This document shows, one piece after another, positions 2,636 through 56,427 of a stretch of DNA of 64,000 nucleotides (the stretch's first letter is position 1; the number at the start of each line of letters is the position of its first letter). Below the pieces are notes generated by a model, which was not told where the DNA came from, ran no database searches, and saw only the letters and a list, made by a program, of their open reading frames with translations. The DNA comes from a virus, in the IMG/VR virus record IMGVR_UViG_3300045988_120991, positions 32,001 through 96,000 of that record. The stretch is one strand, 5' to 3'. The position numbers and the translations under genes were made by a program.

Positions 2636-3178
2636 TTGGCAAATCAAGATTCAACTTTTGCAACTATTATAATTGGTGTTAAGCATAATAGATTATCTGT
2701 AGTGAGAAGTGCTATTGGAACGAGTGGAATTATTGACACATTAATGTGCAAATTTGAATTTAGAACCACCGATTGGGCTGGCATTCAAAAGATGGCAGTA
2801 TTTCAGAGCATGAGTGATTATGTAAAGCATAAAGATGAAAATAAAGTTATTGTTCCATTAAATGAGCAAGGGGAATGTTATGTTCCTGCCGATGTTATGA
2901 CTGGCCAAGGAGAATTTTTAATTGGTGTATTTGGTGTATATGATAACAATAGTAGAATCGTTTCAAACTTTTTGGCATTTAAATGTGATAAAGGCTGTTA
3001 TTGCATTGGATCTACACCTGGTGGCACTACTCCCAGTGATTATGCAGAAATTATTGCTTTAATAGATAAAAAGCAGGATGTATTAATTCCCGGTGATGGA
3101 ATAAGCATTGATGAAAATAATGTAATAAGTTGTACTTGCGAAATTACACTAATAAACGGAGGTGACAGCAATGAGTAA
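2636..3178 (+). CDS. hypothetical virion-module protein (180 aa)
   Basis: TTG start 7-8 nt after GGGAGGTGGTG. The stop overlaps the start of the next fibre gene. Function unknown. Confidence 0.5.
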   Translation: MANQDSTFATIIIGVKHNRLSVVRSAIGTSGIIDTLMCKFEFRTTDWAGIQKMAVFQSMSDYVKHKDENKVIVPLNEQGECYVPADVMTGQGEFLIGVFGVYDNNSRIVSNFLAFKCDKGCYCIGSTPGGTTPSDYAEIIALIDKKQDVLIPGDGISIDENNVISCTCEITLINGGDSNE

Positions 3179-3719
3179 GACATTGAATAATGTTAGAATT
3201 CAACTCAGAAATGATACCGCCACCAATTGGCAAAATTCCACTGTGGTGCTACTGCCTGGTGAATTTGCCGTAGAAAATGATACTGGTTTATTCAAAATTG
3301 GTAATGGAACTGATGTTTTTAAGGATTTAAAATATGCAAATAAGGCTGGAGAAACTTCTCAAGAGCTGGAGAATTTAAAAGCTCAAATTGGTGATATTCC
3401 AGAAGGAAAAACCATAATCAAAATGATTGAGGAAGCGGCTTATGACGATACTACATTGTCCGGCAAAGTAACTGTAAATGAACAGGCGATTGCCTCTTTG
3501 AATAGCAAAATGGACAATATTGAGGCTGGTTCTGTAACATCCGTGAATGGTAAAACTGGCGAGGTTACTATTGCAGCCTCAGATTTAATTAAGTCTTCTT
3601 CTGACACAAATAAAATATCTATTGCTGAAGATGGAACACTTGAAGTTAATTCACTGACTTTTGATAAAATTATGCAATCAGAAGGCGATGAAATTATTCT
3701 TTCTGGTGGCGGAGCCTAA
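3171..3719 (+). CDS. fibre-like protein with Mtd_N/HylP-type N-terminal domain
   Basis: The ORF track starts at GTG 3162. ATG 3171 is preferred because it lies 6 nt after GGAGGTG and overlaps the upstream stop (ATGAGTAA). The N-terminus RIQLRNDTATNWQNSTVVLLPGEFAVENDTGLFKIGNGTDVF fits the R-x-D-T-x-x-N-W ... GE ... DT ... KIGDG pattern of phage fibre N-terminal domains. A coiled-coil-like middle follows. Confidence 0.7.
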   Translation: MSKTLNNVRIQLRNDTATNWQNSTVVLLPGEFAVENDTGLFKIGNGTDVFKDLKYANKAGETSQELENLKAQIGDIPEGKTIIKMIEEAAYDDTTLSGKVTVNEQAIASLNSKMDNIEAGSVTSVNGKTGEVTIAASDLIKSSSDTNKISIAEDGTLEVNSLTFDKIMQSEGDEIILSGGGA

Positions 3720-3743
3720 TTTTTAAAGGAGGGTTTTATTCAT

Positions 3744-5006
3744 ATGGCGACTAAAACACTAAATACGAGAATTATTATGAGAAACGACACCGCAGAGAAT
3801 TGGACTACTAAGAATCCAACTCTATCAAAGGGCGAATTTGGTGTCGAAAATGATACTAACAAGTTTAAGATTGGTGACGGAGCTACTGCATGGAAGGAAC
3901 TAGCCTATGCTGGTGCAGATGAAACCGTTATCAAATCTATTATTAACGCAAACCGCGACGCCTGTACTTATGTTGACTTAACCGAAGGGCAGGAAGATGC
4001 AGATGGCCTAGCCACTATCACATCTCCAAAACAGGGTGATACCGCTATTGTTCGCAAGGCCATTGATGATACTCATAAGTCTTATACTGCTTATGTTTAT
4101 ACTGGTACAGCTTGGTCTGCCATGGATGGCAACTATAATGCAGATAATGTCTATCTTGATATGGATATCACTATGGCTGGTAACTATACTCAGGTTGGTA
4201 ACTTAACCAAAACTCAGAATGGTACAGCTACTTTTGCCACGAAAGGCAAGTCTATTGCTGCGGCTCTAACCGACATTTTCTCTAAGCGTCTACAGCCCGG
4301 TACTCCTACCGCTCCTGCAGTAGCTCTAACTTTCGGTCAGGCTAAGGCTTACGAAGTTGGTACTACTGTATCTCCTTCTTATTCTGCTACTCTAAGCGCA
4401 GGTTCTTATACCTATGGCCCTGCTACTGGTATTACTGCCACTTCTTGGGAGATTACTGATACTGCCGGAAATACTGCGGATACTGCTACTGGTTCTTTTG
4501 CTGATGTAGTCGTTGCTGATAATACCAATTATAAAATTACTGCAAAGGCTAATTATGGTGAAGGTACAGTTGCTAAGGATAACTTAGGTTCTGATTCTAA
4601 TCCTGTAGTCAAGATTGCCGCTGGTTCTGCCACTAAGACTTCTGGTGCTATTACAGGTTATCGTAATACTTTCTATGGCACTGTAGCTGAAAAAGCTGAA
4701 GTTACTAGCACTATTATTCGTGGACTGTCTGGTAAATCTAATGCAGCATGGTCAAATGGTAAGTCTTTTACTGTTAATATTCCTGTTGGCGCAGTTCGTG
4801 TAATTTTTGCATATCCCGCTACTCTACAGGATGTCAGCTCTGTAAAGGACGTAAATGGCCTAAACGCTGAGATTAAGAGCGCTTTCACCAAGTCTGCGGT
4901 AACTGTAGCTGGTGCCGGTGCTGATGCTGGTATTGAATATAAGGTATATGTAACTGACTTTGCAGAACCTGTTGCAAAGGCTAATTCTTATACGGTGAAA
5001 ATCTGA
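3744..5006 (+). CDS. fibre/receptor-binding-like protein with Mtd_N/HylP-type N-terminal domain (420 aa)
   Basis: AGGAGG RBS. The N-terminus RIIMRNDTAENWTTKNPTLSKGEFGVENDTNKFKIGDGATAW is paralogous to the 3171, 6364 and 16983 genes. The remainder is Thr/Ala/Gly-rich and beta-like. Confidence 0.7.
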   Translation: MATKTLNTRIIMRNDTAENWTTKNPTLSKGEFGVENDTNKFKIGDGATAWKELAYAGADETVIKSIINANRDACTYVDLTEGQEDADGLATITSPKQGDTAIVRKAIDDTHKSYTAYVYTGTAWSAMDGNYNADNVYLDMDITMAGNYTQVGNLTKTQNGTATFATKGKSIAAALTDIFSKRLQPGTPTAPAVALTFGQAKAYEVGTTVSPSYSATLSAGSYTYGPATGITATSWEITDTAGNTADTATGSFADVVVADNTNYKITAKANYGEGTVAKDNLGSDSNPVVKIAAGSATKTSGAITGYRNTFYGTVAEKAEVTSTIIRGLSGKSNAAWSNGKSFTVNIPVGAVRVIFAYPATLQDVSSVKDVNGLNAEIKSAFTKSAVTVAGAGADAGIEYKVYVTDFAEPVAKANSYTVKI

Positions 5007-6329: not shown

Positions 6330-6363
6330 TTATTATTTTATGATTTAAAGGAGATTGACATAT

Positions 6364-7881
6364 ATGGCTAATAAGACTTTTAATACACGTATTAAGAACA
6401 AAATTGATACTTATGCGAATTGGATTGATAAAGATCCTGTCCTGCTTAATGGTGAAATTGCCGTTGTAGTTATCCCTGCCGAAACTGGTGCTGTACAGGG
6501 CGAACCTGTTACTCTATTTAAGGTCGGTGACGGCACTAAGAACTTTAGCCAGCTAGAGTTTACTGGTGCAAAGGCTGCTGATGTTTATGGTTGGGCTAAG
6601 GCTGCTACCAAGCCAACGTATTCTGCTACCGAAATTACTGGTCTAGAAGCTTATATTGGTGAGAAGATTCAGGATACTGATACCCAGTATAAGCTAGAGG
6701 CTGATGCTGAAGATGGCCACAAGTTCTATCTATATTCCAAAGCCAAGGGTGATGAGGCTTTTGGTACTACGCCTGTAAGCACTATCACTATTCCTGAGAC
6801 TGTATATACTCTAGCTACTGGTACTGCCAATGGTACTGTTAAGTTTAATGGCGAGGATGTAGCTGTTAAGGGTCTAGGCTCTGCTGCTTATACCGACTCT
6901 ACTGCTTATGATACTAAGGGTGCCGCTCAGACCGCAGAAGACAATGCTAAGGCTTATGCTGACGGCAAAGACACTGCTATTGCAGCAGCTAAGAAGGCCG
7001 GCACTGATGCTCAGGATACTGTTAACGCTCTATCTGGTAAGGTGGGCACAGTCCCTGAAAACAAGACTGTTGTTGAAATGATTTCTGATGCTCAGGCTGC
7101 TGCAACTTATAATGATACCGAGGTTAAGGCCGGCATCAAGGCCAATGCTGATGCTATTACTAAGCTAAATGGCACTTCTGCAGTTGAAGGTTCTGTTGAT
7201 AAGAAGGTGGCAGACGCTATTAATGAGTTTGCTACTAAGGTTAGCGATGACCAGACTGTTAACACCTTTAAGGAGCTAATTGATTATGCCGCTGACCATA
7301 AGGACGAGTATAGCACTCTGTCTGGCGAAGTTCAGGCTAACAAGACTGCTATTGCCACTCTAAACGGCAAAGATACTGACGCTGGTTCTGTAGCAAAGAC
7401 TGTTAAGGATGCCGTTGATGCCGCACAGGCTACCCTTCAGGGCAACATTGACAAGAAGGTTGACAAGGTAGAAGGTAAGGGTCTATCTACCAATGATTAT
7501 ACCACTGACGAGAAGACCAAGCTAGAAGGCATCGCCTCTGGTGCTCAGGCCAACGTCATTGAGACTGTTAAGGTTAATGGTGTTGCACTAACTCCTGCCG
7601 ACAAAGCTGTTGACGTTACTGTTCCTACTGGTACTCTTGCTAGTAAGGATAAGGTTGCCGAAACCGACCTTGTAGACACTCTTGCTACAAAGATCAATGG
7701 TAAGCTAGATGCTTCTGAGGTTACTGGGGACCTTCTGACTCATAACGCTTCTGAGTTTGCTACCGCTGATCATAACCATGACACCGTTTATTCTAAGCTA
7801 GACCACAATCATAAGATTGAGGATCTAGAGCAGAGCGCTTATATTATTTTCGACTGTGGTACTGCTAGTACCATTATCTAA
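6364..7881 (+). CDS. fibre protein with Mtd_N/HylP-type N-terminal domain (505 aa)
   Basis: ATG 6364 is preferred over the track's TTG 6355. The N-terminus ANKTFNTRIKNKIDTYANW...GEIAV...FKVGDGTKNF is paralogous to 16983. Contains the GKGLSTNDYTTDEKTKLEGI motif (7474-7548) common in phage fibres, and HxH motifs DHNHD and DHNHK near the C-terminus. Confidence 0.75.
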   Translation: MANKTFNTRIKNKIDTYANWIDKDPVLLNGEIAVVVIPAETGAVQGEPVTLFKVGDGTKNFSQLEFTGAKAADVYGWAKAATKPTYSATEITGLEAYIGEKIQDTDTQYKLEADAEDGHKFYLYSKAKGDEAFGTTPVSTITIPETVYTLATGTANGTVKFNGEDVAVKGLGSAAYTDSTAYDTKGAAQTAEDNAKAYADGKDTAIAAAKKAGTDAQDTVNALSGKVGTVPENKTVVEMISDAQAAATYNDTEVKAGIKANADAITKLNGTSAVEGSVDKKVADAINEFATKVSDDQTVNTFKELIDYAADHKDEYSTLSGEVQANKTAIATLNGKDTDAGSVAKTVKDAVDAAQATLQGNIDKKVDKVEGKGLSTNDYTTDEKTKLEGIASGAQANVIETVKVNGVALTPADKAVDVTVPTGTLASKDKVAETDLVDTLATKINGKLDASEVTGDLLTHNASEFATADHNHDTVYSKLDHNHKIEDLEQSAYIIFDCGTASTII

Positions 7882-7917
7882 GTGGCATTGCCTCTTCACA
7901 TTAAGTAGTTTATTTAA

Positions 7918-7949
7918 TAGGAGGGGCATTACACCTCTCCTATTTTTTT
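7918..7949 (+). terminator. rho-independent terminator
   Basis: TAGGAGGGG...CCTCTCCTA hairpin followed by T7 (7943-7949). Confidence 0.65.
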
Positions 7950-7976
7950 AGACTATACAAGGAGGAATGAAAACTA

Positions 7977-10900
7977 ATGGCCTATATAAATAAAGTTACT
8001 GTTAGAGGCAGAACATACAATTTAGAGAATCTAACGGATGGTACTCACATTGTTAGATTGCCTACTTTAAGTGGAGATGATGTTTTTGTTACAGAAAAGA
8101 CATTACAAACCGGTGTAAAAGCATCTGAGCTTACTGATGGTACTCATACTGTTAGTTTGCCAAAAAATTTAACAAAAGATGATACATTCGTTCTACAAAG
8201 CGCACAAGATAAGGTTAATAACACTAAGGTTGATAAGGTGAATGGCAAGGGATTATCGACCAATGACTATACTACTCCAGAAAAGAATAAACTTTCTGGT
8301 ATTGAAGATGGAGCCAATAAATATATTCACCCTATCTATAACGCAAGAGTATCTGGTCTATATAAAATTACAGTTGATAGTACCGGTCATGTTAGTGATG
8401 TAAGCGAGGTTACAAAGGACGACATTACTGGCCTTGGTATAACTGATGGTACGGATGCAGTTACTCAGGCTAACGCATATACGAATAAGACTATTTCTGA
8501 ATATGAACCTTATTCTATTGAAGTTGTAGACACGCTACCAGAGTCTGGTGAAGACAGAACATTCTATCTTGTTCCTAACGAGTCTAAGACTGGTTATACG
8601 AAATACTGGTGGATTACTGACAATGGTGAACAAAAGTGGGATGAGTTTAAGGGTGCTTCTACTGTAGTTGTGACCGAACTTCCAACAACTGGTGAGAAAG
8701 AAACAGACTATATCCTACATTCTGATGCAGGATGTTTTTATTACAAATGGATTGACAACGAATGGAAGATGGTTGCAGGAACCGTTGCCCATATTGTAAA
8801 TGAATTACCACAGATCGGAAACGAATATTCAGATTACTATGTGAAAAACACCGATGATTCATATGTACATTATCGTTATATTGACGGTGCATTCTGCATA
8901 ATTGGTGGAGACACATATAACAAAACACAAGTAGATAATAAAATTTCAACATTAAAGACTGATATTGATTCAAATACAACAAACATTACTTCTCTAAGCC
9001 GCACAGTTGATGGTATCAGACAAGATTTGGATAGTCTAGATACAGAGGGTTATACTTACTACGCTACTTATGGCAATGCTACTCTTGCGACTGGAGACGA
9101 AGCAGAAAACGTATTTACACTTTATGAAGTTAAAAATGAAAAAGAAGAAGTTAAAAGTCAGTTTGTAATTACTGGTGGAGGTGGCGGAGGCACTACAACC
9201 ACTACTCTTAAGGTTGAGCGTATTACCGAGTCCCCCATTATTGTCACAACAACTGACAAAGTAGAAATAAGCTTCAACTATTCTTCAACAGATAGCGATG
9301 GAGAGTCAGTTGATGGTACTTGTACTTGGAAACTCGGAAATACCGTTCTATCCACTGGAGCATTAGTTCAGGGTGTTAATACTTTTGACATGACTGAACA
9401 TGTGAATATTGGCACTCAAAAATTTGTTTTAACAGTTGTGGACGCCGCTGGTAGTGTTGCAGTTAAATCTTGGACTGTGCAAAAGGTTGATGTCAGACTT
9501 GAATCTTCATTTAGCGACAAGATTGCATATGAAGCTAACAAGTCTGTGAACTTTACATATACACCATATGGTGCAATAAACAAAACTGTGCATTTTGTTC
9601 TTGATGGGGCTGAAATAGGGACTGTTGCTACAAGTTCATCTGGTACACTACAGTCTTATACACTCCCAGCTCAAGAACACGGAGCACATTTACTTGAGTG
9701 CTACATTACCGCAACGATTAACGGAAAGAGTGTTGAAACGGATCATATATTTAAGGATATAATTTGGTATGATGAAAATAGTGAGACCCCCGTCATTGGT
9801 TGTGTTTATAGATATGACCACTATGGCAAGGTGGAGGCTAAGCAGTATAACTCTACAAACATTCCATTCTATGTATTTGATCCAAAGACAGAAACACCAA
9901 CTATTACGAGAAGTGTTGACGGGAAGGTTATCGCAACTCAAACTATGTCTGGAACATCAGATGTTTGGGCGTATAAATCTTCTGATATTGGTGAACATAC
10001 GCTTACTATTACTTGTAAGAGTACAACACTAACGATTGTAATGGACATTAAGGAACTTGGCATTACTATTGAGCCAATTACTGCTAATCTCGCATTTGAC
10101 TTTAACCCAACTGGTCTATCGAACAGTGATGAAGACAGACTATGGAAAGATAATAGCACGAATGTCACTATGACTGTTTCTGATAATTTCGACTGGTCGA
10201 ATGGTGGTTATCAGATTGATAGTGATGGAAATCAATATTTCTGTGTAAAAGCTGGAACGACTGCGACTATTAATTATAACCTATTTGAGAGAGATGCAAA
10301 CACTTATGGTTCTGAGTTTAAGTGCATTTTTAAGACTACGAATGTTAGAAAAGCAAACGCAACGTTTTTGACTTGTCAAGCAGACTCTACCGTTGTTGGT
10401 CTGGAAATGAATGTTCATGAGGCATATTTGAGGTCCAGTATTAAGAGTCTGTATATTCCTTATAGTGAGGAAGATGTTATTGAGTTTGAGTTTAACATTA
10501 ACTCACTCGATAAAGATAATCCAGACGCAACGGCTATTATTATGAGTTATGAGGACGGTGTTGGCTTAAGACCAATGATTTATGATTCTACTCATAGGTT
10601 GTATCAGTACGAGCCTGTACCTATTACTATTGGCTCTACAGATTGTGATGTTCATATTTATCGTATGAAAGCTTATACTTCTGCTCTGACTGATTCTAAC
10701 ATTCTTTCTAACTTTATTGCAGATGCCAGAGATTCTGATGAAATGATTGCAAGATATAACCGTAATCAGATTTATGATGAAAACAATGCTTTAACTCCTG
10801 AATCTGTAGCAAATGCTTGTCCTCAGTTGAGGGTCATTAAGATTGAGTGTCCACACTTTACTAATGATAAGAAAGACTATGTTAAGGGAACGAATGTTGA

Positions 10901-13900
10901 GTGCATTTATAAGGGTGGAGATCCAGTACTAGATAACTGGAAGTTTATTAATTGCTACCATGCGGGGCAGGGCACTACTTCCAATGAATATGGATACGCC
11001 GGTAGAAACATTGATATCATCATGTGCGCGGATGGTAAGAATCAGATTGTTAGCAAGATTCCTCTAGATACAGAATATGTTACAGAACTTATTCTTGGAG
11101 ATGGAACAAAGTATAGCGATGGTTCTGGAAAGGTTAGCTTGACGAGAAATTCTGTGCCAAACAATTGGTTTAATTTAAAAGTCAATATTGCTAGCTCAGA
11201 AAATGCAAACAATGCATTACTTCAGAAGAGATACAATGACTACTTACCATATAAAACTGTCGCTATGGAAAAAGATCCAAAGTGTAAGAATAGCATGGAA
11301 TTTGTAAATTGCGTAATATTCATTAAGGAGACTGACCCTGATATCTCTACACATAGAGAATTTAAGGATAATGATTGGCATTACTACGCTTTGGGCAACA
11401 TCGGTGACTCCAAGAAAACCGATGCAACCAGAGTAAATGATGTAAATGATCTCAAAGAGTTCGTCATTGAAGTAAGTGATAACACTCTTGCAAATAGTAC
11501 GTTCCAAACTGGTGTCACGGATAGTAGTGGTGATATGGTTTATCCTATTACCAAGGAACAATGGAAAGCAGGAAATACTGCTTATGATGCCCTATATAAT
11601 GATTGGGACGGCTCTTTCGAGTTCCGCTATGATATGGGTGGTGAAACCAAAGATGGTGCGAGTTTAGCAACATCTGAAGAAAAAGAAGCACAGAGACTTC
11701 TAAATAAGCAAATATGGCGTGATTTCTATGAGTGGGTTATTACTTCTACTGACGAAGAGTTTGTTTCTAAACTAGGGGATTGGGTTATTAAAGATTCCGC
11801 TCTGTATTGGTATTTGTTCACTGAAAGATATACTATGATTGACAACAGAGCGAAAAACACATTTTGGCACTATGCTAAGTGCTCTGATGGTAAGTATCGT
11901 TTTGAATTGTGGGATTATGATAACGATACAGGCTTGGGAATTAATAACTCAGGTGAGCTAACAATGACTTACGGCAAAGAAGATATAGACTATAAAACAG
12001 ATGGAGATCCATCATCTGGCTACATCTTCAATGCGGCAGATAGTGTATTTTGGTGTCGTATTCGTGATTTGATGAAAAATGATTTAGCAACAATGTATCA
12101 GACTCTTGATAGTAGTGGTTGTTGGAGTGACACTTCTCTAATTAATGAATTTGATAATTGGCAAGCTCAATTCCCAGAAGAACTTTGGAGACTTGATATT
12201 GAGCGTAAGTATTATCGTACATATCAAGGTGGTGGCTTAAATGGTGGTTTAGAGCCAGAGCCAACTCCTCGTTTCCTAGCCTCCATGATGAATGGTCGTA
12301 AGAAGTATCAGCGTAGACAGTTTGAGCGTGACCAAGCTGCTTATATGGGAACAAAATATTTGTCCACAACTATCAAAGCAGACCAAATCATGTTTAGATG
12401 CAACACTCCTTCTGGTGTAGTTGTTGCACCTAATTACACGCTAAACATTGTACCATATTCTGATATGTATTTGTCTGTATTGTTTGGTAATTCTCCAAGT
12501 GCCCAACAGATTCGTGCAAAAGCTGGGCAGACATACGAAATCACCTGCCCACTTACCAAGATGGATGATACAGCAGTACTGATTTATTGTGCTTCTCGTA
12601 TTCAGGCACTAAATGATATTTCTGCTTGTTATATTCACGATAACGACTTCTCAAAGGCTTCCAAGCTTCAGAAACTAATTATCGGTAATAGCACATCTGG
12701 ATATTCTAATCAGTTCTTAACAAACTTAAATCTTGGTAACAATGCACTTTTAGAAGAACTAAATATTCGTAATTGCCCCAATTTGACTGGTTCTATCAAC
12801 CTTTCAAGCTGTGGCAATCTAGAGAAGCTTTATGCCGAAGGTACTTCAATTACTGGTGTATTGTTCGCCTCTAATGGTAAAATTGTCTTGGCTCATCTAC
12901 CAGGAACTATTAATAGTTTGACATTAAAGAATCTGAAGTATCTTACTGATTTATTGGCGACTTATGGGAACCTTGAGTCTTTGACCGTTGAGAATTCTAT
13001 CGTAGACGAATATTCTATTGTTGAGGATGCTATAGACACATTACAAATTTTGAGATTGGTTGGTATTGACTGGACTGTTACAAATACTGATTTGCTAAAC
13101 AAGATTCTTAAGATGAATAGCAGTATGCTTGCCGGTAAGGTCCATATTGCTGGCCAAGCAAGACAGAGAGAATTAGATGCTTATGCGTCTGCATGGCCTG
13201 ATTTAATTGTTACTTATAATGGTATCATTACACAGTACAAAGTTACGTTTATGAACGCAGATGGCACACCAATTAAAGATAAGAAGGGCAATGATTATGT
13301 TCAGTATGTAGACCAAGGTGGAAAGGCTATTGACCCAATTACAAATGGTGATATTAATACTCCTACGATTACTAGTACTGAACAGTACAATTATACCTTC
13401 TCTGGTTGGGATGGCATTGATTCAAATGTAACTTCAGCAATGACTGTTACCGCAAAGTATAATGAGACCGTCAGAACCTATACCGTCCGTTGGTTTAAGC
13501 AGCCTGGTGTTGTTTGGGAAACCAAAGAAAATGTTGAGTATGGCACTGGTGCATGGCCAGACAAGGAAAACCCAACTATGAATGATAATGAGGATTCTTA
13601 TATTTATAATATCTTTACTGGTTGGGATAAAAATACTGGCTTCATTACTGGAAACACTGATGTTTATGCAAAATGGCAAACTCAAAATGGTCTACCTCAG
13701 TCTGGTACAGAGCTAAAAGATATGACTCCTGTTCAGCTATATGCGGTCACAACGGCAGGTAAGACCAATGACTATTTTGAACAGAAGGATTATATTGATG
13801 TCAACATGGGCAATGACTATTCATTTACTAATGTTGCAGAGAACGTTCTAGCAGGAGAGAAGACCTTCGATGGAACTAGTTCTAAAGTTATAGATACTGG

Positions 13901-14927
13901 AATTAAGCTATTTGACGCAGATAGGTCCTTTACCATGGCGATTGATTTTGAGTTTGGTAACAATTCGTTTTCTGATGATACACTGCTATCTTGCTTCGAG
14001 TACGATGGTTCAGAAGGTTTCAGATTGAAGTTCAATGGCACTAGTCCTGAAATTCAGTGGGGTAATTCCAGCCAAGTAGTTGGTTATGGTGCAAAGAGGG
14101 ACCTTGTTGTTTTACGTCATATAAAAGGCGAGGATAAATTATACATCTACTCTTTCAATGCTGGTGCTGGTTCAAGTGACATATATGCAGATGAGATTGA
14201 GTACACCGAGCTGACTCGTAACCGTAGCACTTCTACGGAAGCAACAATTGTTCTTGGTGGATTTAAGTTCTTATCAAATGGTACTATCGACAACATGGGT
14301 AAGGGTTGTATCCATTGGGCAAAGGTATGGCTTGAAGATTTGGGCGATTCTATCGCTAGAGATTTGGCTGCTTGGCCCCATGAAACTATCCGTCTAGAAT
14401 ATTGCGGAAGTGAACGTTATAGATTTGCAAATGACTCTAGTCGTAAGACCGGTGCTTCATTTATTGCAAAAGATTTGCTATCTCACGAGCACAATATGAA
14501 CTCAACGAATACTAATGTTGGTGGTTGGGAAGACACTTCTATGAGACAATTTATGAACTCTAGAGTATATGAAGGATTCCCACTTGTATGGAAGTCAATT
14601 CTTAAGAAGGTACAAGTGCCTACTAGTATTGGCGGAAATTCTACGGAGATTGTATTCTCAAAAGACTATGTTTATGCTCCGTCTTATGTTGAGCTTTCTG
14701 GTATTCAGACAGTACCTTATGTAAACGAAGGTAGTCATATTACGTGGTTTACTGATGATGCTTCAAGAGTAAAGACTAGAAATGGTGTTGCGAAAGGATA
14801 TTATGGTAGATCTGCTATTATCAACTACAATACGTATTTCGTCTATACTAATGAGCAAGGTACATGCAATAACATGTATATAGTGTCGAGCAGAAACAGT
14901 GGTATTTGTATATGTGTTTCAGTGTAA
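7977..14927 (+). CDS. giant multidomain fibre/adhesin (2,316 aa)
   Basis: AAGGAGG RBS and an uninterrupted 6.9-kb ORF. Motifs seen by eye, in order:
- a duplicated LTDGTH.V.LP...DD.F N-terminal module;
- GKGLSTNDYTTPEKNKLSGI;
- three LP..G....Y...... repeats;
- a Gly6-Thr5 linker;
- Ig-like segments;
- a LamG-like segment;
- a CotH-like region (about 10700-12400; IDNRAKNTFWHY...YRFELWDYDNDTGLG);
- LRRs (about 12620-13050);
- two Listeria-Bacteroides repeats (YKVTF...YTFSGWD, YTVRW...IFTGWD; about 13230-13680);
- a second LamG-like segment (about 13850-14350);
- a DUF6273-like end. Confidence 0.85.
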   Translation: MAYINKVTVRGRTYNLENLTDGTHIVRLPTLSGDDVFVTEKTLQTGVKASELTDGTHTVSLPKNLTKDDTFVLQSAQDKVNNTKVDKVNGKGLSTNDYTTPEKNKLSGIEDGANKYIHPIYNARVSGLYKITVDSTGHVSDVSEVTKDDITGLGITDGTDAVTQANAYTNKTISEYEPYSIEVVDTLPESGEDRTFYLVPNESKTGYTKYWWITDNGEQKWDEFKGASTVVVTELPTTGEKETDYILHSDAGCFYYKWIDNEWKMVAGTVAHIVNELPQIGNEYSDYYVKNTDDSYVHYRYIDGAFCIIGGDTYNKTQVDNKISTLKTDIDSNTTNITSLSRTVDGIRQDLDSLDTEGYTYYATYGNATLATGDEAENVFTLYEVKNEKEEVKSQFVITGGGGGGTTTTTLKVERITESPIIVTTTDKVEISFNYSSTDSDGESVDGTCTWKLGNTVLSTGALVQGVNTFDMTEHVNIGTQKFVLTVVDAAGSVAVKSWTVQKVDVRLESSFSDKIAYEANKSVNFTYTPYGAINKTVHFVLDGAEIGTVATSSSGTLQSYTLPAQEHGAHLLECYITATINGKSVETDHIFKDIIWYDENSETPVIGCVYRYDHYGKVEAKQYNSTNIPFYVFDPKTETPTITRSVDGKVIATQTMSGTSDVWAYKSSDIGEHTLTITCKSTTLTIVMDIKELGITIEPITANLAFDFNPTGLSNSDEDRLWKDNSTNVTMTVSDNFDWSNGGYQIDSDGNQYFCVKAGTTATINYNLFERDANTYGSEFKCIFKTTNVRKANATFLTCQADSTVVGLEMNVHEAYLRSSIKSLYIPYSEEDVIEFEFNINSLDKDNPDATAIIMSYEDGVGLRPMIYDSTHRLYQYEPVPITIGSTDCDVHIYRMKAYTSALTDSNILSNFIADARDSDEMIARYNRNQIYDENNALTPESVANACPQLRVIKIECPHFTNDKKDYVKGTNVECIYKGGDPVLDNWKFINCYHAGQGTTSNEYGYAGRNIDIIMCADGKNQIVSKIPLDTEYVTELILGDGTKYSDGSGKVSLTRNSVPNNWFNLKVNIASSENANNALLQKRYNDYLPYKTVAMEKDPKCKNSMEFVNCVIFIKETDPDISTHREFKDNDWHYYALGNIGDSKKTDATRVNDVNDLKEFVIEVSDNTLANSTFQTGVTDSSGDMVYPITKEQWKAGNTAYDALYNDWDGSFEFRYDMGGETKDGASLATSEEKEAQRLLNKQIWRDFYEWVITSTDEEFVSKLGDWVIKDSALYWYLFTERYTMIDNRAKNTFWHYAKCSDGKYRFELWDYDNDTGLGINNSGELTMTYGKEDIDYKTDGDPSSGYIFNAADSVFWCRIRDLMKNDLATMYQTLDSSGCWSDTSLINEFDNWQAQFPEELWRLDIERKYYRTYQGGGLNGGLEPEPTPRFLASMMNGRKKYQRRQFERDQAAYMGTKYLSTTIKADQIMFRCNTPSGVVVAPNYTLNIVPYSDMYLSVLFGNSPSAQQIRAKAGQTYEITCPLTKMDDTAVLIYCASRIQALNDISACYIHDNDFSKASKLQKLIIGNSTSGYSNQFLTNLNLGNNALLEELNIRNCPNLTGSINLSSCGNLEKLYAEGTSITGVLFASNGKIVLAHLPGTINSLTLKNLKYLTDLLATYGNLESLTVENSIVDEYSIVEDAIDTLQILRLVGIDWTVTNTDLLNKILKMNSSMLAGKVHIAGQARQRELDAYASAWPDLIVTYNGIITQYKVTFMNADGTPIKDKKGNDYVQYVDQGGKAIDPITNGDINTPTITSTEQYNYTFSGWDGIDSNVTSAMTVTAKYNETVRTYTVRWFKQPGVVWETKENVEYGTGAWPDKENPTMNDNEDSYIYNIFTGWDKNTGFITGNTDVYAKWQTQNGLPQSGTELKDMTPVQLYAVTTAGKTNDYFEQKDYIDVNMGNDYSFTNVAENVLAGEKTFDGTSSKVIDTGIKLFDADRSFTMAIDFEFGNNSFSDDTLLSCFEYDGSEGFRLKFNGTSPEIQWGNSSQVVGYGAKRDLVVLRHIKGEDKLYIYSFNAGAGSSDIYADEIEYTELTRNRSTSTEATIVLGGFKFLSNGTIDNMGKGCIHWAKVWLEDLGDSIARDLAAWPHETIRLEYCGSERYRFANDSSRKTGASFIAKDLLSHEHNMNSTNTNVGGWEDTSMRQFMNSRVYEGFPLVWKSILKKVQVPTSIGGNSTEIVFSKDYVYAPSYVELSGIQTVPYVNEGSHITWFTDDASRVKTRNGVAKGYYGRSAIINYNTYFVYTNEQGTCNNMYIVSSRNSGICICVSV

Positions 14928-15696: not shown

Positions 15697-15727
15697 AACG
15701 AGAGGTGCTTATGTGCCTCTCGTTTTT
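15697..15727 (+). terminator. rho-independent terminator
   Basis: AACGAGAGG (15697-15705) pairs with CCTCTCGTT (15716-15724) and runs into TTTTT. The ORF-track start at GTG 15713 lies inside this hairpin. Confidence 0.7.
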
Positions 15728-15748
15728 GTAATTCATAGTGGAGGTGAA

Positions 15749-16921
15749 AAAATGTCCTACATAAATACTATTGATATTAATGGAGTAGTATATAATTTAG
15801 GTAGTTTAACTGACGGTAATTATGAAGTTAATTTACCAAATTTAAAAAATAATGATGTTTTCTTATTGCAAGGAGATGTTGTTAGTAATTTGGTTACACA
15901 GTCAAATAAGCCACTTGCTGCAAGTCAAGGCAAGATTCTTAATGACAAGATTAGTGCATTAAGTGAAAGTTCCACAAATCAAGGAACAAGTCTTAAAAGT
16001 GATATTGCCCAGTTAAGGACAGATATGACAACGGGAGATTCTACAACACTATCTAATGCAAAGTCATATGCAGATGGACTAAAATCAGCATCCGATAAAA
16101 AGGACACGGAACTTGATGGTGAAATTACAGCCCTCAGAACAGACATGGGTACTAATGATACGTCAACATTAACATCCGCAAAATCATATACTGACACAAA
16201 GTGCGGGGATACATTGGTTTCTGCAAAAACATATTCGGACAATGGTTTTATAAATAAAACAAATATAGTTGACAATCTTACTACTGATTCTGCTGACAAG
16301 GTTTTATCTGCAAAACAAGGCAAAGTGTTAGAAGATAAAAAGTTTAATAAGGTGGGTGGAACTATTTCTGGAGCAGTAACTATAAATGGCACTCTTACAA
16401 TTGGTGGTTCTAATGGGATTAGTGTTAGTAAGGTTCCGACTGCAAACAATGATGTGGTAAATAAGAAATACGTTGATGACAAAATTTCTGGCTATAGTAT
16501 AGCTGATAATTCGATAACAACTGCAATGATTGTTGATGGTGCAATTACAAAGGCAAAACTAGGAACGGACATTACTTTAGACTCAAGTGAAATTGGTACA
16601 ACAACCGAAGGTTGGACATATATAAAAATGAGTAATGGTGTTGCGATTGCCTGGGGTAGTTTTGAAAATAGTGCCGGAGTTGGTTCTAATGGTGAGTTTT
16701 CTGAAGCATATCCAACCGGATTGTTTATAAATGCACCAGCTTGTACACCATTTTTGTATGCAAGTGGGCAAGATGTTATCCAATTTAGTAAAGATGCTGG
16801 TGATAAGGATAATACACCAAAGATTGGTGTTCACTTATTGAGTTCAATACTTAACCCGGGCACTTCAGAAGCATTGGGAACTATCAAAATTGACTATATT
16901 GCAATTGGTAAATGGAAATAA
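15749..16921 (+). CDS. fibre protein (390 aa) sharing its N-terminal module with the giant adhesin
   Basis: ATG 15749 lies 5 nt after GGAGGTG; the track's GTG 15713 is rejected. MSYINTIDINGVVYNLGSLTDGNYEVNLPNLKNNDVFLLQG parallels MAYINKVTVRGRTYNLENLTDGTHIVRLPTLSGDDVFVTE. Also contains repeated LRTDM...T.L..AKSY.D motifs. Confidence 0.7.
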   Translation, partial: KMSYINTIDINGVVYNLGSLTDGNYEVNLPNLKNNDVFLLQGDVVSNLVTQSNKPLAASQGKILNDKISALSESSTNQGTSLKSDIAQLRTDMTTGDSTTLSNAKSYADGLKSASDKKDTELDGEITALRTDMGTNDTSTLTSAKSYTDTKCGDTLVSAKTYSDNGFINKTNIVDNLTTDSADKVLSAKQGKVLEDKKFNKVGGTISGAVTINGTLTIGGSNGISVSKVPTANNDVVNKKYVDDKISGYSIADNSITTAMIVDGAITKAKLGTDITLDSSEIGTTTEGWTYIKMSNGVAIAWGSFENSAGVGSNGEFSEAYPTGLFINAPACTPFLYASGQDVIQFSKDAGDKDNTPKIGVHLLSSILNPGTSEALGTIKIDYIAIGKWK

Positions 16922-16982
16922 TTTTCAATAAATTTATCGGCATATGTCGGTATTTTTATTTTGTATTAAGGAGGTAACACAA

Positions 16983-17864
16983 GTGGCAAACAAGACATTT
17001 AATACCCGCATTAAGAATAAGCGGGATACGAGTGCGAACTGGACTAGCAAAGACCCTGTTTTGTTAGATGGCGAACTCATTATTGTTGACACAGCAAGTG
17101 GTGAAGTGAGATTTAAAATTGGTGATGGCACTAAGAAGTACTCACAGTTGCCATTCCAAGATGAGATTTTAAGAAATTCAAAAGTAGATTTGGACGCTGG
17201 TGTATATACTGCTACTGCTTCAAGCACTGATGGTATAGCATATTCTGCTACTGTTCCCGGTATTACTGCTTTAACCGCTGGCGCTAGTTTTATTATGATT
17301 CCAAATAAAGCAAGTACAAGCAAGGCACCAACATTAAATGTTAACGGATTAGGCGCAAAGCCAATTAGGCGCAGACTAAGCTCTCTAACAACTAGCTTAC
17401 AGCAAGGATATAGTACTAACTGGATTGCCCTCAATAAGCCGTTTATTGTAGTATATGATGGTATAGCATGGGTTGTTGAAGGTCTGACAAAAACTGATGG
17501 TGCAGATGTGTATGGAGCGGTTGCACAAGCTACGGCAGATGCGAACGGAAACAACATTGCAAAGACATATGCTACGATTGTTATGCTGCAAAGTCTGTTG
17601 CCAAAGGTCACAACAATTACACTGACATCTAATTGGGTTGGAGGTGCAAGCCCATATTATCAGGATGTTGCACTAAGTTGTGTAACAGAGACAAGCATTG
17701 TTGATTTGCAGCCAACGCCAGAGCAGCTTAACTCTTGGCAGGATGATGGGATTGCATTTACAACTTTGAGCGGAAATGGTACTGTGCGTGTTTATGTAGC
17801 TGGCGGTAAGCCAAGCAGCGCAATTTCAGTACAAGTTAGAGTACAGGAGGTGACAGTTATATGA
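16983..17864 (+). CDS. fibre/receptor-binding-like protein with Mtd_N/HylP-type N-terminal domain (293 aa)
   Basis: GTG 16983 lies 7 nt after AAGGAGG. The N-terminus ANKTFNTRIKNKRDTSANWTSKDPVLLDGELIIVDTASGEVRFKIGDGTKKY matches the paralogue family. The long antisense ORF 16934-17611 is a shadow ORF. Confidence 0.7.
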   Translation: MANKTFNTRIKNKRDTSANWTSKDPVLLDGELIIVDTASGEVRFKIGDGTKKYSQLPFQDEILRNSKVDLDAGVYTATASSTDGIAYSATVPGITALTAGASFIMIPNKASTSKAPTLNVNGLGAKPIRRRLSSLTTSLQQGYSTNWIALNKPFIVVYDGIAWVVEGLTKTDGADVYGAVAQATADANGNNIAKTYATIVMLQSLLPKVTTITLTSNWVGGASPYYQDVALSCVTETSIVDLQPTPEQLNSWQDDGIAFTTLSGNGTVRVYVAGGKPSSAISVQVRVQEVTVI

Positions 17865-18110: not shown

Positions 18111-19805
18111 ATGCCTAATGGCGATTTTGAGCCTATGTATTCTACTAATAACATATGGTACGATACTTATACAGCGCAGTGCCTCACAAATCATCTTGAA
18201 GATATGGAGGCAGATATTGATACATTACAAACCGGCAAAGCAAATGTAAATCATACGCATAACGAATATTCTCCAATTAACCATGAGCATTCTGAATATG
18301 CTCTGGTAAATCATTCTCATACTGGATATGCTCTTATTGGACATACCCATAGTTATAATGACTTAGAAGATAAGCCAGTTATCCCGACTACTCTTCCTGC
18401 GAATGGCGGCAATTCCGATACTGTAGATGGCAAACATGCCGCAGATTTTGCGACTGTGGAATCAGTAGATATGCTTCAAACCCTTGTTGGAAGTACTAGT
18501 GTCCAGTCTCAGATATCAACTGCAGTTGGTACTATAACTCCGACTAGTATTGGTGCAGCAGAAGAAGATCATGTTCATAACTATAACGATTTAACGAATA
18601 AGCCAACTTCACTCCCGGCTAATGGTGGAAATGCGGACACCGTGGATGGTAAACACGCAAATGACTTTGCCACCGCCGAATCAATGAGTGCCATGGAAAC
18701 TTTAGTTGGCAGCACAAGCGTACAATCGCAGATATCTAACGCAATTGATAATCATACACATAGTTATAATAATCTGACAGATAAACCAACGTCATTGCCA
18801 GCAAACGGAGGCAACGCAGATACAGTAGATGGTAAACATGCTAGTGATTTTGCAACATCTGCTGATATTACCATGCTTCAAAATTTAGTTGGTGACACGG
18901 CTGTTCCTACGCAAATTAATAATGCTATCACTTCTGCCACTAGTGATTTGTCAGATACATATGCTACAAAAGCAAATCCTAAATTTGAAAATAGTATTAG
19001 TATGAATAGAGAAACATGGTCTACTGTCGGAACTAATAGTATTGCTATAGGAAATTATTGCCAAGCAAGTGGAAATTATTCTTATGCCGAAGGGTATTTT
19101 TCAAAAGCGACTACTTCGGAAAGCGTAACTCCAACTAGCTCAAATTCTTCAGATTTAGGGTATTGTTGTCATGCAGAAGGTTATTTTTCTGTAGCTCGTG
19201 GCGCAATTTCTCATGCGGAAGGTAATGGAACATTAGCATCAGGTGGCAATTCTCATTCTGAAGGTTGTAGTACTACTGCGAGTGGTGAATGTTCACATGC
19301 AGAAGGATATCATACTACAGCATCTGGAAAGAATGCACACGCAGAAGGTATTTCAACAAAGGCGACCGGGGATTATACTCATGCCGAAGGGTATTATAGT
19401 GAAGCTACAAAGAATTATGCACACGCGGAAGGATGCCAGACTGTAGCGAGTGGCACATCATCACATGCAGAAGGGGCGAACACAATTGCTTCTGGGTATC
19501 ATTCTCACGCGGAGGGTGATGAAACAATTGCACAAACCTTAAGCCAACATGTAGAGGGTGCATATAATATACCGGATTCAGGAGGCAGTGTGTCTAGATA
19601 TGGTAAATATCTTCATATTGCTGGTAATGGTTCTAATTTGGCTCGTTCCAATGCTTACACTCTAGATTGGGATGGCAATGGTTGGTTTGCAGGAACTATT
19701 GAGGGGACGGCTATGATTTTAAAATCTTCAACACCAAATAGCACAAAACGATTTAAAATCACTGTTGACGATAGTGGCGCTATAAGTACGACAGAGATAA
19801 ATTAA
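18111..19805 (+). CDS. repeat-rich fibre protein (564 aa) with HxH repeats and YadA-head-like HAEG repeats
   Basis: GGGAGG RBS. Contains four NH.H..Y..[IV] decapeptides, three 62-75 aa modules (LPANGGN.DTVDGKHA.DFAT...LVG.T.V..QI), and eight 14-aa repeats centred on [ST]HAEG. The C-terminus reads AYTLDWDGNGWFAG. Confidence 0.8.
   Translation: MPNGDFEPMYSTNNIWYDTYTAQCLTNHLEDMEADIDTLQTGKANVNHTHNEYSPINHEHSEYALVNHSHTGYALIGHTHSYNDLEDKPVIPTTLPANGGNSDTVDGKHAADFATVESVDMLQTLVGSTSVQSQISTAVGTITPTSIGAAEEDHVHNYNDLTNKPTSLPANGGNADTVDGKHANDFATAESMSAMETLVGSTSVQSQISNAIDNHTHSYNNLTDKPTSLPANGGNADTVDGKHASDFATSADITMLQNLVGDTAVPTQINNAITSATSDLSDTYATKANPKFENSISMNRETWSTVGTNSIAIGNYCQASGNYSYAEGYFSKATTSESVTPTSSNSSDLGYCCHAEGYFSVARGAISHAEGNGTLASGGNSHSEGCSTTASGECSHAEGYHTTASGKNAHAEGISTKATGDYTHAEGYYSEATKNYAHAEGCQTVASGTSSHAEGANTIASGYHSHAEGDETIAQTLSQHVEGAYNIPDSGGSVSRYGKYLHIAGNGSNLARSNAYTLDWDGNGWFAGTIEGTAMILKSSTPNSTKRFKITVDDSGAISTTEIN
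18249..18368 (+). repeat. 4 x 30-nt in-frame HxH decapeptide repeats
   Basis: NHTHNEYSPI / NHEHSEYALV / NHSHTGYALI / GHTHSYNDLE, read directly from the translation. Confidence 0.8.
18349..18950 (+). repeat. 3 tandem divergent protein modules (225, 186 and about 190 nt)
   Basis: H.YN.L..KP..LPANGGN.DTVDGKHA.DFAT......L..LVG.T.V..QI occurs three times, starting at 18349, 18574 and 18760. Confidence 0.8.
19165..19530 (+). repeat. about 8 x 42-nt in-frame HAEG repeats
   Basis: SHAEGNGTLASGGN / SHSEGCSTTASGEC / SHAEGYHTTASGKN / AHAEGISTKATGDY / THAEGYYSEATKNY / AHAEGCQTVASGTS / SHAEGANTIASGYH / SHAEGDETIA. Confidence 0.8.
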
Positions 19806-24471: not shown

Positions 24472-24549
24472 TCAAATGAATAGAAAAATTTTTGTAGATT
24501 CATTTCTACGGAGTTTTAGATTAAAATAATAAAAAGGAGAGTGTTTTTT

Positions 24550-25560
24550 ATGGCAAAAGTTTTTTTATCACCAAGTGAGCAGTTTAACAATGCTTATGCA
24601 TGGGGCAATACTACCGAAGGAGTACAATGTGGCAAGATTGCCAATGTTTGTAAGTCTGCACTTGAGCGTTGTGGCATCTCTGTAAAGCTACAACATGAAG
24701 GTACGATGGCTAGTAAGTGTCAAGCTTCTGATGCTTTTGGTGCAGATTTACATGTTTGTATTCATACCAATGCTTGCAATGGCAAGGTGAGTGGCACTCG
24801 TATGTTCTGCCATGACGCAAGCGGTAAAGGTATGAAGGCTTGCAAGGCTATTTTTAGTGTACTTGCACCTTTGACTCCTGGCAAGAGTGAGAATATTTCG
24901 ATTAATCCACAGCTATATGAAATTCGTGTGCCAAATGCTCCTACTGCTTATATTGAGTGTGAGTTCCATGATGTGCCTAGCGTAGCAAAATGGATTGTGG
25001 AACATACTACTGATATTGGCGAGGCTATTGCTCATGGTATTTGTAATTATTTTGGTGTGGCTTATAAAATAAATAGCAGTTCTGATTCTGCTCCTAAGCC
25101 AACACCTACTCCTGCTCCTTCAAAGAAGGAGCTATATCGTGTACGTAAGAGCTGGGCGGATGCTTCTTCTCAGATTGGGGCATTTGCAGTACTTGATAAC
25201 GCTATTCGCGCTTGCAAGGAAGGCTATAAGGTATTTGATAACAAGGGTAACGTTGTATATCCAAAGGCTGCTCCTGCAAAGAAGTCAGTTGCTGTGATTG
25301 CTCAGGAAGTCATTGAAGGTAAGTGGGGCAATGGTCAGGATAGAAAGAACAGACTAACCGCTGCTGGATACAATTACGATGAGGTACAGAATTATGTGAA
25401 CAAGCTATTGTCTGCTCCTGCAAAAAAGAGCATTGATGAGGTCGCAAGAGAAGTTATTGCCGGTAAATGGGGTAATGGTGCAGACCGTAAAAATAGACTA
25501 GTTGCTGCGGGCTATGATTATGACGCAGTACAAAAGAGAGTAAATGAAATCCTCTCATAA
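24550..25560 (+). CDS. endolysin: N-acetylmuramoyl-L-alanine amidase (Amidase_3-like) with two CW_7 wall-binding repeats
   Basis: ATG 24550 lies 8 nt after GGAGAG. DLHVCIHTNA and YIECEFHD fit the Amidase_3 zinc-ligand context. The C-terminus carries two copies of GKWGNG.DRKNRL.AAGY.YD.VQ (Cpl-7-type CW_7). Confidence 0.85.
   Translation: MAKVFLSPSEQFNNAYAWGNTTEGVQCGKIANVCKSALERCGISVKLQHEGTMASKCQASDAFGADLHVCIHTNACNGKVSGTRMFCHDASGKGMKACKAIFSVLAPLTPGKSENISINPQLYEIRVPNAPTAYIECEFHDVPSVAKWIVEHTTDIGEAIAHGICNYFGVAYKINSSSDSAPKPTPTPAPSKKELYRVRKSWADASSQIGAFAVLDNAIRACKEGYKVFDNKGNVVYPKAAPAKKSVAVIAQEVIEGKWGNGQDRKNRLTAAGYNYDEVQNYVNKLLSAPAKKSIDEVAREVIAGKWGNGADRKNRLVAAGYDYDAVQKRVNEILS
25290..25557 (+). repeat. 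2 x CW_7 (Cpl-7-like) repeats within the endolysin
   Basis: VIAQEVIEGKWGNGQDRKNRLTAAGYNYDEVQNYVNKLL and EVAREVIAGKWGNGADRKNRLVAAGYDYDAVQKRVNEIL. Confidence 0.85.
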
Positions 25561-54544: not shown

Positions 54545-54578
54545 GCAAAAATAAAAAGAGTGGTTGAAACCACTCTTT
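54545..54578 (-). terminator. rho-independent terminator of the integrase gene
   Basis: On the minus strand: AAAGAGTGG TTTCAA CCACTCTTT followed by TTATTTTTG. The stem overlaps the int stop codon. Confidence 0.75.
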
Positions 54579-55728: not shown

Positions 55729-55760
55729 TCCTTTAACAATACAAAATTAATTGTACTACT

Positions 55761-55790
55761 ATTATAATTTATGTTAACTGATGTGGTCAA
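55761..55790 (-). promoter_or_regulatory. promoter candidate for int
   Basis: On the minus strand: TTGACC (55790-55785), an 18-nt spacer, then TATAAT (55766-55761). The -35 element is embedded in the GATGTGGTCAA repeat. Confidence 0.45.
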
Positions 55791-56082: not shown

Positions 56083-56110
56083 ACTTGCAATGCATAGCAA
56101 GGCTTAATAA

Positions 56111-56305: not shown

Positions 56306-56378
56306 TATATCATCTCCTTGAATATTTTTAATGAAATATGGAAAATATTAAAATAGTTGCATTGTTATATATAAATTT

Positions 56379-56411: not shown

Positions 56412-56427
56412 ATTTTTTATTTAATTG

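Follow-up and report, generated by a model that had tools for sequence, protein, structure and literature searches.

The ORF at positions 7977 to 14927

We analysed a giant open reading frame (ORF) in a 64,000-nt stretch of viral DNA (IMG/VR record IMGVR_UViG_3300045988_120991, positions 32,001 to 96,000; this whole stretch is referred to here as the window). The gene runs from 7977 to 14927 on the + strand as a single uninterrupted ORF of 2,316 amino acids (aa) plus a stop codon, and is read here as encoding a giant modular tail-fibre or adhesin protein. The ORF has a strong ribosome-binding site: a Shine-Dalgarno sequence, AGGAGG, is present at 7960–7965 (+), 11 nt 5′ of the ATG. Between this sequence and the preceding gene lies a terminator-like hairpin (7916–7944). 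The guanine-cytosine (GC) content over the ORF is unremarkable. Homologues were sought among ∼5.8 billion proteins, and full-length sequences that are 54–97% identical were found on contigs of 150–190 kb. The ORF is therefore not an assembly oddity.

A preliminary description, made from the sequence, had read the protein as a phage adhesin with a fibre-type N-terminus, a CotH-like region, leucine-rich repeats (LRRs), two Flg_new (Listeria-Bacteroides) repeats, two LamG-like regions and a DUF6273-like end. This list of domains largely holds. The motifs on which it was based are all in place: LTDGTH occurs twice (at aa 19 and aa 52), KGLSTNDYT is at aa 91, three LPxxG sequences are at aa 187, 235 and 277, QGTTSNEYGY is at aa 998, further motifs of the CotH-like region are at aa 1064, 1137 and 1288 with YRFELWDYDNDTGLG at aa 1307, and LQKLIIGNS is at aa 1564. 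Splitting of the ORF by frameshifts, raised as a possible objection, does not apply since the window has the uninterrupted allele.

The core has a predicted CotH-type kinase-like fold

The central part of the protein (aa 700–1740) was modelled with AlphaFold2 using 55 sequences, giving a predicted local distance difference test (pLDDT) value of 90.2 and a predicted template modelling (pTM) score of 0.87. When this model was compared to the PDB with Foldseek, the matches included the Bacillus cereus CotH kinase 5JD9 (E 3.9e-9, TMt 0.69) and CotH 5JDA (E 2.7e-9, TMt 0.64). From these matches and from the Pfam matches of relatives, we placed a CotH-type protein-kinase-like domain with helical linkers at aa 905–1470 (10689–12386, +); the secondary structure of the model shows a small beta-sandwich following it at aa 1471–1545 (12387–12611, +). 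Four relatives that are 47–88% identical to aa 991–1583 pass the Pfam CotH (PF08757) cut-off of 23.8 bits (P0125, 24.9; P0127, 25.1; P0154, 31.4; P0221, 27.5), and only one of 20 diverse family members reaches the gathering score. The viral predicted structures neighbouring the core carry the names ‘Spore coat protein H kinase fold’, ‘CotH kinase protein’, ‘Leucine-rich repeat protein’ and ‘Internalin-like protein’. The CotH-like region is thus borne out indirectly, through its relatives and its model, and the core is confidently predicted to adopt the atypical protein-kinase-like fold of the solved CotH structures.

The likeness to Bacillus CotH (PF08757; 5JD9/5JDA) consists of the kinase-like fold together with D-x4-N and D-x-D motifs. 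In contrast, sequence identity is ∼10%, and the Pfam model and profile searches miss the phage protein. The sizes also differ: the phage domain has ∼520–560 aa with large insertions and lies inside a 2,316-aa fibre, whereas CotH has 360 aa.

Catalytic-type residues are nearly invariant

CotH from Bacillus subtilis is inactivated by the substitutions D228Q and D251A (PMC7821199). The B. subtilis CotH sequence that we used was checked solely by its match to 5JD9 (E 5e-142); in it, D228 lies within NYDGFVHN and D251 within PWDYD. The proposed equivalents in the phage protein are a catalytic-loop-type motif, D1289-N-R-A-K-N1294 (11841–11858, +), for D228...N233 of CotH, and Y1314-D-N-D-T-G-L-G1321 (11916–11939, +) for the W-D251-Y-D-A-T-W-G metal-binding motif. 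A local alignment of the two proteins placed D1289 on D228, N1294 on N233 and WDYD on WDYD with a score of 63, which was reached by one of 200 shuffled sequences. The register at D251 is ambiguous by two residues. D1313, which the pairwise alignment sets against D251, is an aspartate in only 31 of 51 family sequences, and we therefore favour a match of Y-D1315-x-D1317-x-x-x-G with W-D251-x-D253-x-x-x-G, in which D1315 would correspond to D251.

This is supported by the conservation of the motifs in the family alignment, where D1289, K1293, N1294 and G1321 are each present in 49/49 sequences and D1315 and D1317 each in 49/51. Three further basic residues are similarly conserved (K1068, 42/42; K1146, 46/46; R1010, 39/40). 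Residues of the D1289, K1293, N1294, D1315, D1317, K1068 and K1146 type are also invariant in 20 diverse representatives of the family, which are 26–51% identical to the first of them. The same motifs recur as DQRAKN and YDGDT in the variable protein of the Bacteroides phage p00 (Hankyphage), and as DSRAKN and YDFDT in a protein of phage NatCom_3357. At the level of motifs, the answer to whether the CotH catalytic residues are retained is thus yes: few or no sequences depart from D1289-x4-N1294 and Y-D1315-x-D1317, and the catalytic-type residues appear to be kept across the family.

Lectin-like, LRR and repeat modules flank the core

Upstream of the CotH-like domain, residues 1–205 of the core model form an all-beta ConA/LamG-like jelly roll (aa 700–904; 10074–10688, +), to which we assigned the Foldseek matches to botulinum-toxin Hc lectin-like domains in the PDB and to viral proteins named ConA-like or LamG-like. 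Foldseek gave no coordinates, so for both jelly rolls of the protein we infer which segment the lectin-type matches belong to. Downstream of the domain is an LRR-like region at aa 1549–1742 (12621–13202, +), with LxxLxL..N periodicity. Five matches to LxxLxLxxN were found by regular expression at aa 1581–1700, and the last ∼190 residues of the model (aa 1549–1740) show short repeated strands. Together with the LRR- and internalin-named proteins among the structural neighbours of the core, this supports the LRR reading; an LRR has also been described for the Hankyphage homologue.

A second AlphaFold model covers aa 1701–2316 (pLDDT 93.5); in it, a pair of small beta units is followed by a beta-sandwich and finally by DUF6273. 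The two beta units correspond to the Flg_new repeats at aa 1743–1832 and 1834–1904 (13203–13688, +). By BLASTP, aa 1742–1901 matched P0306 (E 5.6e-22) and also P0315, P0308 and P0300, in each case overlapping stretches that Pfam calls Flg_new, and the reading of two such repeats is supported accordingly. The sandwich is a second ConA/LamG-like jelly roll, CBM40-like, at aa 1939–2145 (13791–14411, +; Foldseek). The best PDB matches of this model are sialic-acid-binding CBM40 modules, those of R. gnavus (6ER3, E 6e-7) and NanJ (2V73), with TMt values of 0.59–0.64; legume lectins and a pentraxin also match. Two LamG-like regions are therefore upheld by the models at the level of fold.

The protein ends in a DUF6273 tip domain (aa 2150–2316; 14424–14924, +), which Pfam confirms directly (PF19789, aa 2168–2299, E 6e-10, 39.7 bits against a cut-off of 23.5). 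This was the sole Pfam match when the whole protein and six overlapping segments of it were searched. DUF6273 has been reported to be C-type-lectin-like and a frequent target of diversity-generating retroelements (DGRs) in the receptor-binding proteins of gut phages (PMC10743442, PMC11792537). As here, tentaclins (PMC10743442) and DGR targets of Faecalibacterium prophages (PMC11792537) are gut-phage structural proteins with DUF6273 as the distal binding domain. Unlike the window protein, they have no CotH/LRR core and are DGR-diversified; their size is also much smaller.

Compared with relatives, aa 800–1600 are the most conserved and the DUF6273 tip the least. In full-length relatives with a core that is mostly 80–97% identical, the tip is 38–54% identical (68% in P0002). 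The N-terminal 160 residues have been swapped between lineages, and one relative is clearly a mosaic.

The N-terminal part resembles a phage fibre

The N-terminal module (aa 1–185; 7977–8531, +) is of fibre type. It contains the two LTDGTH sequences and KVDKVxGKGLSTNDYTTxEKxKLxGI, and matches PHROG 18608 and 38190. The KVDKVxGKGLSTNDYTT motif is shared with the fibre-like ORF immediately upstream (6355–7881; BLASTP 60% identity over 45 aa, E 1e-11). The reading as a fibre-type N-terminus holds, and this end probably fixes the protein to the tail. This segment has been exchanged in relatives of 2,550 aa, where the match to the window protein begins at aa 161. Motif locations define three LPxxG...Y repeats of ∼45 aa each at aa 183–315 (8523–8921, +). 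These are followed by a probable coiled-coil stalk at aa 316–399, as suggested by a weak Fib_alpha match, and a Gly6-Thr5 linker at aa 400–410 (together 8922–9206, +). Residues 411–699 (9207–10073, +) are likely to form immunoglobulin (Ig)/PKD-like beta-sandwich spacers, judging from weak profile matches to collagenase PKD domains (E 0.035); phrog_14959 covers this segment. The homology to the Hankyphage variable protein starts within these spacers, at aa 440.

The window protein belongs to a large phage family

In tblastn searches of phage genomes, aa 440–1713 matched the variable protein of Hankyphage (BK010646.1) with 24% identity and aa 465–1901 matched the NatCom_3357 protein; megablast against phage genomes gave no match. 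A hidden Markov model (HMM) of the family recovered the two proteins with E-values of 6e-72 and 9e-167, respectively. The Hankyphage homologue is a 2,245-aa ORF behind the tape measure, hub and minor tail genes, with a DGR variable repeat at its C-terminus, and it is directly followed by the template repeat and the reverse transcriptase. The NatCom_3357 homologue is a 1,673-aa protein located after the tape measure and Dit. The ConA-like/CotH/LRR core is thereby present in Hankyphage and in a Heliusvirales phage.

The window protein and the Hankyphage variable protein are alike in having more than 2,000 aa, in being located in the tail module, in their DxRAKN and YDxDT motifs and in their C-terminal lectin-type tips. 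The order ConA/LamG-like, CotH-like, LRR is identical and aa 700–1740 are homologous. They differ at both ends: the tip is here DUF6273, preceded by two Flg_new repeats and the second, CBM40-like sandwich, and the N-terminus is not the same. The host is here probably one of the Clostridia rather than Bacteroides. The parts of a DGR were not found around the window gene, where the genes downstream are fibres. No second copy of the C-terminal 928 nt was present within the 64-kb window and no reverse transcriptase was found; nor was there a cluster of differences at the C-terminus relative to L001, a relative with 98% DNA identity. With no template-like repeat in the window, the idea that a DGR targets the gene was dropped.

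Proteins of this kind have been noticed in four papers, which treat them as unstudied. Wu et al. 2018 (PMC5758913) described the DGR target category f1, ∼2,000-aa proteins with weak CotH and Laminin_G_3 matches that are probably phage structural proteins. PC_00012 is a 2,284-aa viral DGR target with a CotH-like kinase domain (Roux et al., bioRxiv 10.1101/2020.04.01.020958). Benler et al. 2021 (PMC8008677) noted phage CotH kinase domains fused to hypervariable C-type lectins as ‘currently unstudied’. The ‘domain group 3’ of Bacteroides DGR targets comprises proteins of more than 2,000 aa that combine LRRs with carbohydrate-binding motifs and with motifs of the CotH active site (2024 preprint, bioRxiv 10.1101/2024.11.15.621889). 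Category f1, PC_00012, domain group 3 and the Hankyphage variable protein are one group, and the window protein is a member of it, having more than 2,000 aa, CotH-like, ConA/LamG-like and LRR regions and homology to the Hankyphage protein.

Structural neighbours extend further. In BFVD, the ‘Spore coat protein H kinase fold’ protein of Myoviridae sp. ctrCp2 and the ‘Internalin-like protein’ of the crAss-like phage cr52_1, and likewise gp353 of Bacillus phage G, matched the core with E-values of 1e-28 to 3e-39 over 715–968 aligned columns. Identity is 14–19% and the N- and C-terminal modules differ. Phage G gp353 was also matched by tblastn (27% identity). The CotH-like part alone occurs in this protein and in crAss-like phages.

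The extent of the family was determined by an exhaustive HMMER search with a profile of the CotH region, counted in clusters at 50% identity. There were 2,696 clusters at E ≤ 0.001; a threshold of E ≤ 1e-30 left 901. Fragments aside, the best 150 clusters are mostly proteins of 1,300–3,975 aa with the CotH-like domain in mid-protein. Pfam matches in 20 diverse members were to DUF6273 (9), Phage_fiber_rpt (3), LRR_5 (2), LRR_8 (2), CBM_5_12 (2), BppU_N (1) and CotH (1), so that some family members carry the fibre-associated Phage_fiber_rpt or BppU_N. The ConA-like/CotH/LRR core is a large, old family that is found in phages wherever the context can be checked. As far as the window shows, its protein is a non-DGR member of this already noticed, functionally unexplored family of giants.

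Insertions in relatives fall within the kinase-type motifs

In many close relatives the gene is called as two or three ORFs, with breaks at aa 1069, 1138, 1180, 1301 and 1317–1322. All of these positions except aa 1180 are inside invariant motifs. In L001 there is a precise, intron-like insertion of 1,048 bp (13953–15000 of L001) at window nt 11927/11928, within YDND/TGLG. Within it lies an ORF of 255 aa, a homologue of phage homing/HNH endonucleases; 663 phage records contain a match to it. Removing the insertion restores a 2,316-aa ORF with 16 substitutions relative to the window. In L027, an insertion of ∼1.05 kb (about 12173–13222) with a 244-aa NUMOD4 ORF splits the gene near codon 1070. 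Stop-codon recoding or frameshifts as the cause of the split homologues were rejected, given these precise ∼1.05 kb insertions with endonuclease ORFs.

The nucleotide differences between L001 and the window are concentrated around the insertion site, with 36 of 73 lying between −253 and +62 nt of it, and are mostly synonymous. Such a cluster resembles a co-conversion tract. The boundaries of the L001 insertion can be written as exon...U/intron...G. Rfam called neither a group I nor a group II intron in the L001 insertion, the one that this search covered, so that splicing of the insertions is something we infer.

L001 has a separate element in its tail tube (YomU_Tube) region. Rfam identified a group I intron there (2327–2671; 58.6 bits, E 1e-12), and a 358-aa HNH/DUF4379 ORF comes next (2910–3986). 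This roughly 1.6-kb element is missing from the window (at 1842/1943).

A probable giant receptor-binding protein with a candidate phosphotransferase core

We consider it reasonably probable (roughly 0.65) that the ORF encodes a giant modular tail fibre or receptor-binding protein of a phage of ∼150–167 kb, probably one infecting gut Clostridia. We favour this because the gene lies within a block of fibre-like ORFs, because GKGLSTNDYT is shared with the ORF upstream and because homologues sit in tail modules. ‘Phage adhesin’ or ‘tail fibre’ remains the best short description of the protein. As is usual for receptor-binding proteins, the anchor is exchangeable, the body conserved and the tip quick to evolve. 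The N-terminus would attach the protein to the tail, the distal CBM40-like sandwich and the C-type-lectin-like DUF6273 domain would bind host-surface glycans and so set the host range, and the conserved ConA-like/CotH/LRR body would have a function of its own.

For this body, we tentatively predict activity as a nucleotide-dependent phosphotransferase, a proposal that stands a little short of even odds. It is favoured because the kinase-type motifs are nearly invariant over thousands of lineages. The substrate could be a component of the host envelope or, as CotH phosphorylates spore-coat proteins, virion proteins during assembly. Otherwise, the core would be a ligand-binding or scaffold pseudo-enzyme.

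Several results weigh against the domain assignments and the catalytic proposal. With Pfam, CotH was not matched at E ≤ 1 by the whole protein or at E ≤ 10 by aa 901–1500, Flg_new (PF09479) was not matched at E ≤ 10 by aa 1701–1900, and neither Laminin_G nor Laminin_G_3 was matched at E ≤ 10 by the whole protein or the six segments. The LRR models were below threshold (LRR_1, E 1.1; LRR_4, E 2.6). Searches of PDB sequences with phmmer and two family profiles found no CotH and gave weak PKD-like matches only, and alignment of the family with two CotH sequences by hhalign was not significant. The catalytic mapping rests on motifs and one pairwise alignment; the same shuffle test with the B. cereus CotH sequence was not significant, and the alignment pairs D251 with the variable D1313. 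A fibre acts outside the cell, where ATP is scarce, and this counts against kinase activity during adsorption. Finally, the gene order is unusual, with the fibre block between the tube and tape measure genes.

Other searches were equally uninformative. An HMM built from two CotH sequences gave nothing significant against all of the fetched proteins, NCBIfam gave no match to the 2,316-aa protein and its PHROGs matches were to families of unknown function only. The preliminary description would have been abandoned had profile searches given no significant CotH, LRR or Flg_new hits. Pfam on this protein does formally give none, yet the relatives, the models and BLASTP support the domains. The curated profiles miss four of the five domain types, which have diverged too far.

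The main alternative is a tail fibre with a CotH-like domain that has no catalytic role and serves for binding or as a scaffold; its conserved pocket would hold a ligand such as a phosphorylated or nucleotide-like component of the surface. The CotH proteins of Mucorales, which act as invasins, would be a parallel. A binding or scaffold role is favoured by the extracellular location of the domain, between lectin-like and LRR modules of a fibre, and by its extreme divergence from enzymatic CotH, which is so great that Pfam and PDB profile searches fail; the variability of the residue paired with D251 would fit as well. However, the D-x4-N and D-x-D motifs and several lysines and arginines are invariant or nearly so in a family of ∼2,700 clusters, as expected of a working active site, and the homing endonucleases of relatives target exactly the kinase-type motifs. 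We regard this alternative as rather unlikely.

A bolder form of the phosphotransferase proposal is that the virion-borne enzyme works at the cell surface during adsorption, on a component of the host envelope (a glycan, a teichoic acid or a protein) that the lectin and LRR modules on either side would present to the CotH-like core. We think this distinctly unlikely; if true, surface phosphotransfer would be a receptor-modifying step of a kind undescribed for phage fibres, kept across thousands of gut-phage lineages including Hankyphage.

An effector kinase, delivered with the virion or made inside the cell to alter host signalling, would also account for a kinase-like fold with conserved catalytic-type residues, and has been speculated on for the PC_00012 DGR targets (bioRxiv 10.1101/2020.04.01.020958). 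Against this, the N-terminus has fibre motifs, the C-terminal third is made up of lectin-like binding domains with a hypervariable tip, and the Hankyphage tip is diversified by a DGR, as parts that recognise receptors typically are. Ejection through the tail would also be unlikely for 2,316 aa with many globular domains. We consider an effector in place of a receptor-binding fibre highly improbable.

Recent capture of the whole protein as a bacterial cell-surface adhesin cassette is equally improbable, since the matches of the Flg_new repeats, which are most like those in proteins with Peptidase_M4, LRR_5, DUF285 or ankyrin domains, span just 13–31% of the C-terminal query, relatives with a checkable context are on phage-size contigs or in prophage-like loci, the top 150 clusters of the exhaustive search are (fragments aside) mostly giants of 1,300–3,975 aa, the core is common to two other phage groups and its CotH-like part alone to several more, and the GC content does not change across the gene in any remarkable way. 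The Flg_new repeats are the only specific tie to typical bacterial surface proteins, and they alone point to exchange with these. The preliminary description had seen in the protein a bacterial surface architecture and not that of a phage fibre, and from this had suggested either capture of a host cassette or a new receptor-binding strategy. Neither view is supported, as the family of ∼2,700 clusters includes Hankyphage and a Heliusvirales phage and is found in phages wherever this can be checked, and the core has already been described in phage proteins.

Few large proteins of gut phages are as common as the giant kinase-fold fibre proteins, which include the diversified host-recognition protein of the globally distributed Hankyphage. 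Work on hypervariable phage proteins has already noted the family. To this the window adds a member with a conserved core, a highly variable lectin tip and no DGR in view, confident models of the last third of the protein and of its ConA-like/CotH/LRR core, and evidence that the kinase-type motifs are invariant or almost so and, in relatives, even serve mobile endonuclease elements as homing sites. Taken together, these suggest that the active site matters. A catalytic core would make the family a new class of enzymatic receptor-binding protein, and a non-catalytic one a widespread pseudo-kinase adhesin.

Neighbouring genes, phage and host

The gene is part of an unusually large block of fibre or spike genes (3162–24471, +) between genes for a YomU-type tail tube and a 6,035-aa tape measure protein. 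The block contains three ORFs with Mtd_N-type N-termini (3162–3719, 3744–5006 and 16944–17864, +), a Phage_fiber_rpt protein (15713–16921, +), a YadA-head-like protein (18111–19805, +), a pectate-lyase-like beta-helix protein (21464–23860, +) and a match to phrog_1348 ‘tail fiber’. Beyond the tape measure gene are a Dit-like gene (DUF6558; 45998–47101), a 1,630-aa ORF with no Pfam match (47116–52008) and a DUF859 plus Peptidase_S74 fibre (52024–53784). The tail genes are of siphovirus type, and the phage is one of about 150–167 kb.

An endolysin gene at 24541–25560 (+) encodes Amidase_3 with CW_7 cell-wall-binding repeats, a combination that phages of Gram-positive bacteria typically have and that points to a Gram-positive host. 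The family of the 2,316-aa protein occurs in bacterial genome collections mostly on ∼150 kb contigs binned in various metagenome-assembled genomes. Two isolates carry it, Clostridium transplantifaecale and Clostridium sp. chh4-2. In C. transplantifaecale Marseille-P8228, a 2,295-aa DUF6273-tipped homologue (L018, 5139–12026; NZ_UYZY01000001.1) is beside phage tail-family genes. Because of the endolysin and this homologue, Clostridia are the best guess, and the host is probably among those of the gut. The Marseille-P8228 locus may be an inducible prophage, in which case the family would become experimentally tractable.

The tape measure gene (27822–45929, +) has a PhageMin_Tail match at approximately aa 3,740–3,960. 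A crAss-like phage was first suspected from the 6,035-aa ORF; this was rejected, as the ORF encodes a tape measure and lies among tail genes of YomU/YomW type. The length of the tape measure is extraordinary. Tape measure proteins usually scale at ∼1.5 Å per residue, and if this holds the tail would approach a micrometre. At ∼54000 in the window, the GC skew and AT skew both flip sign and coding moves from the + to the − strand (ORFs 54577–63867). This position is a module boundary, or a replication origin or terminus.

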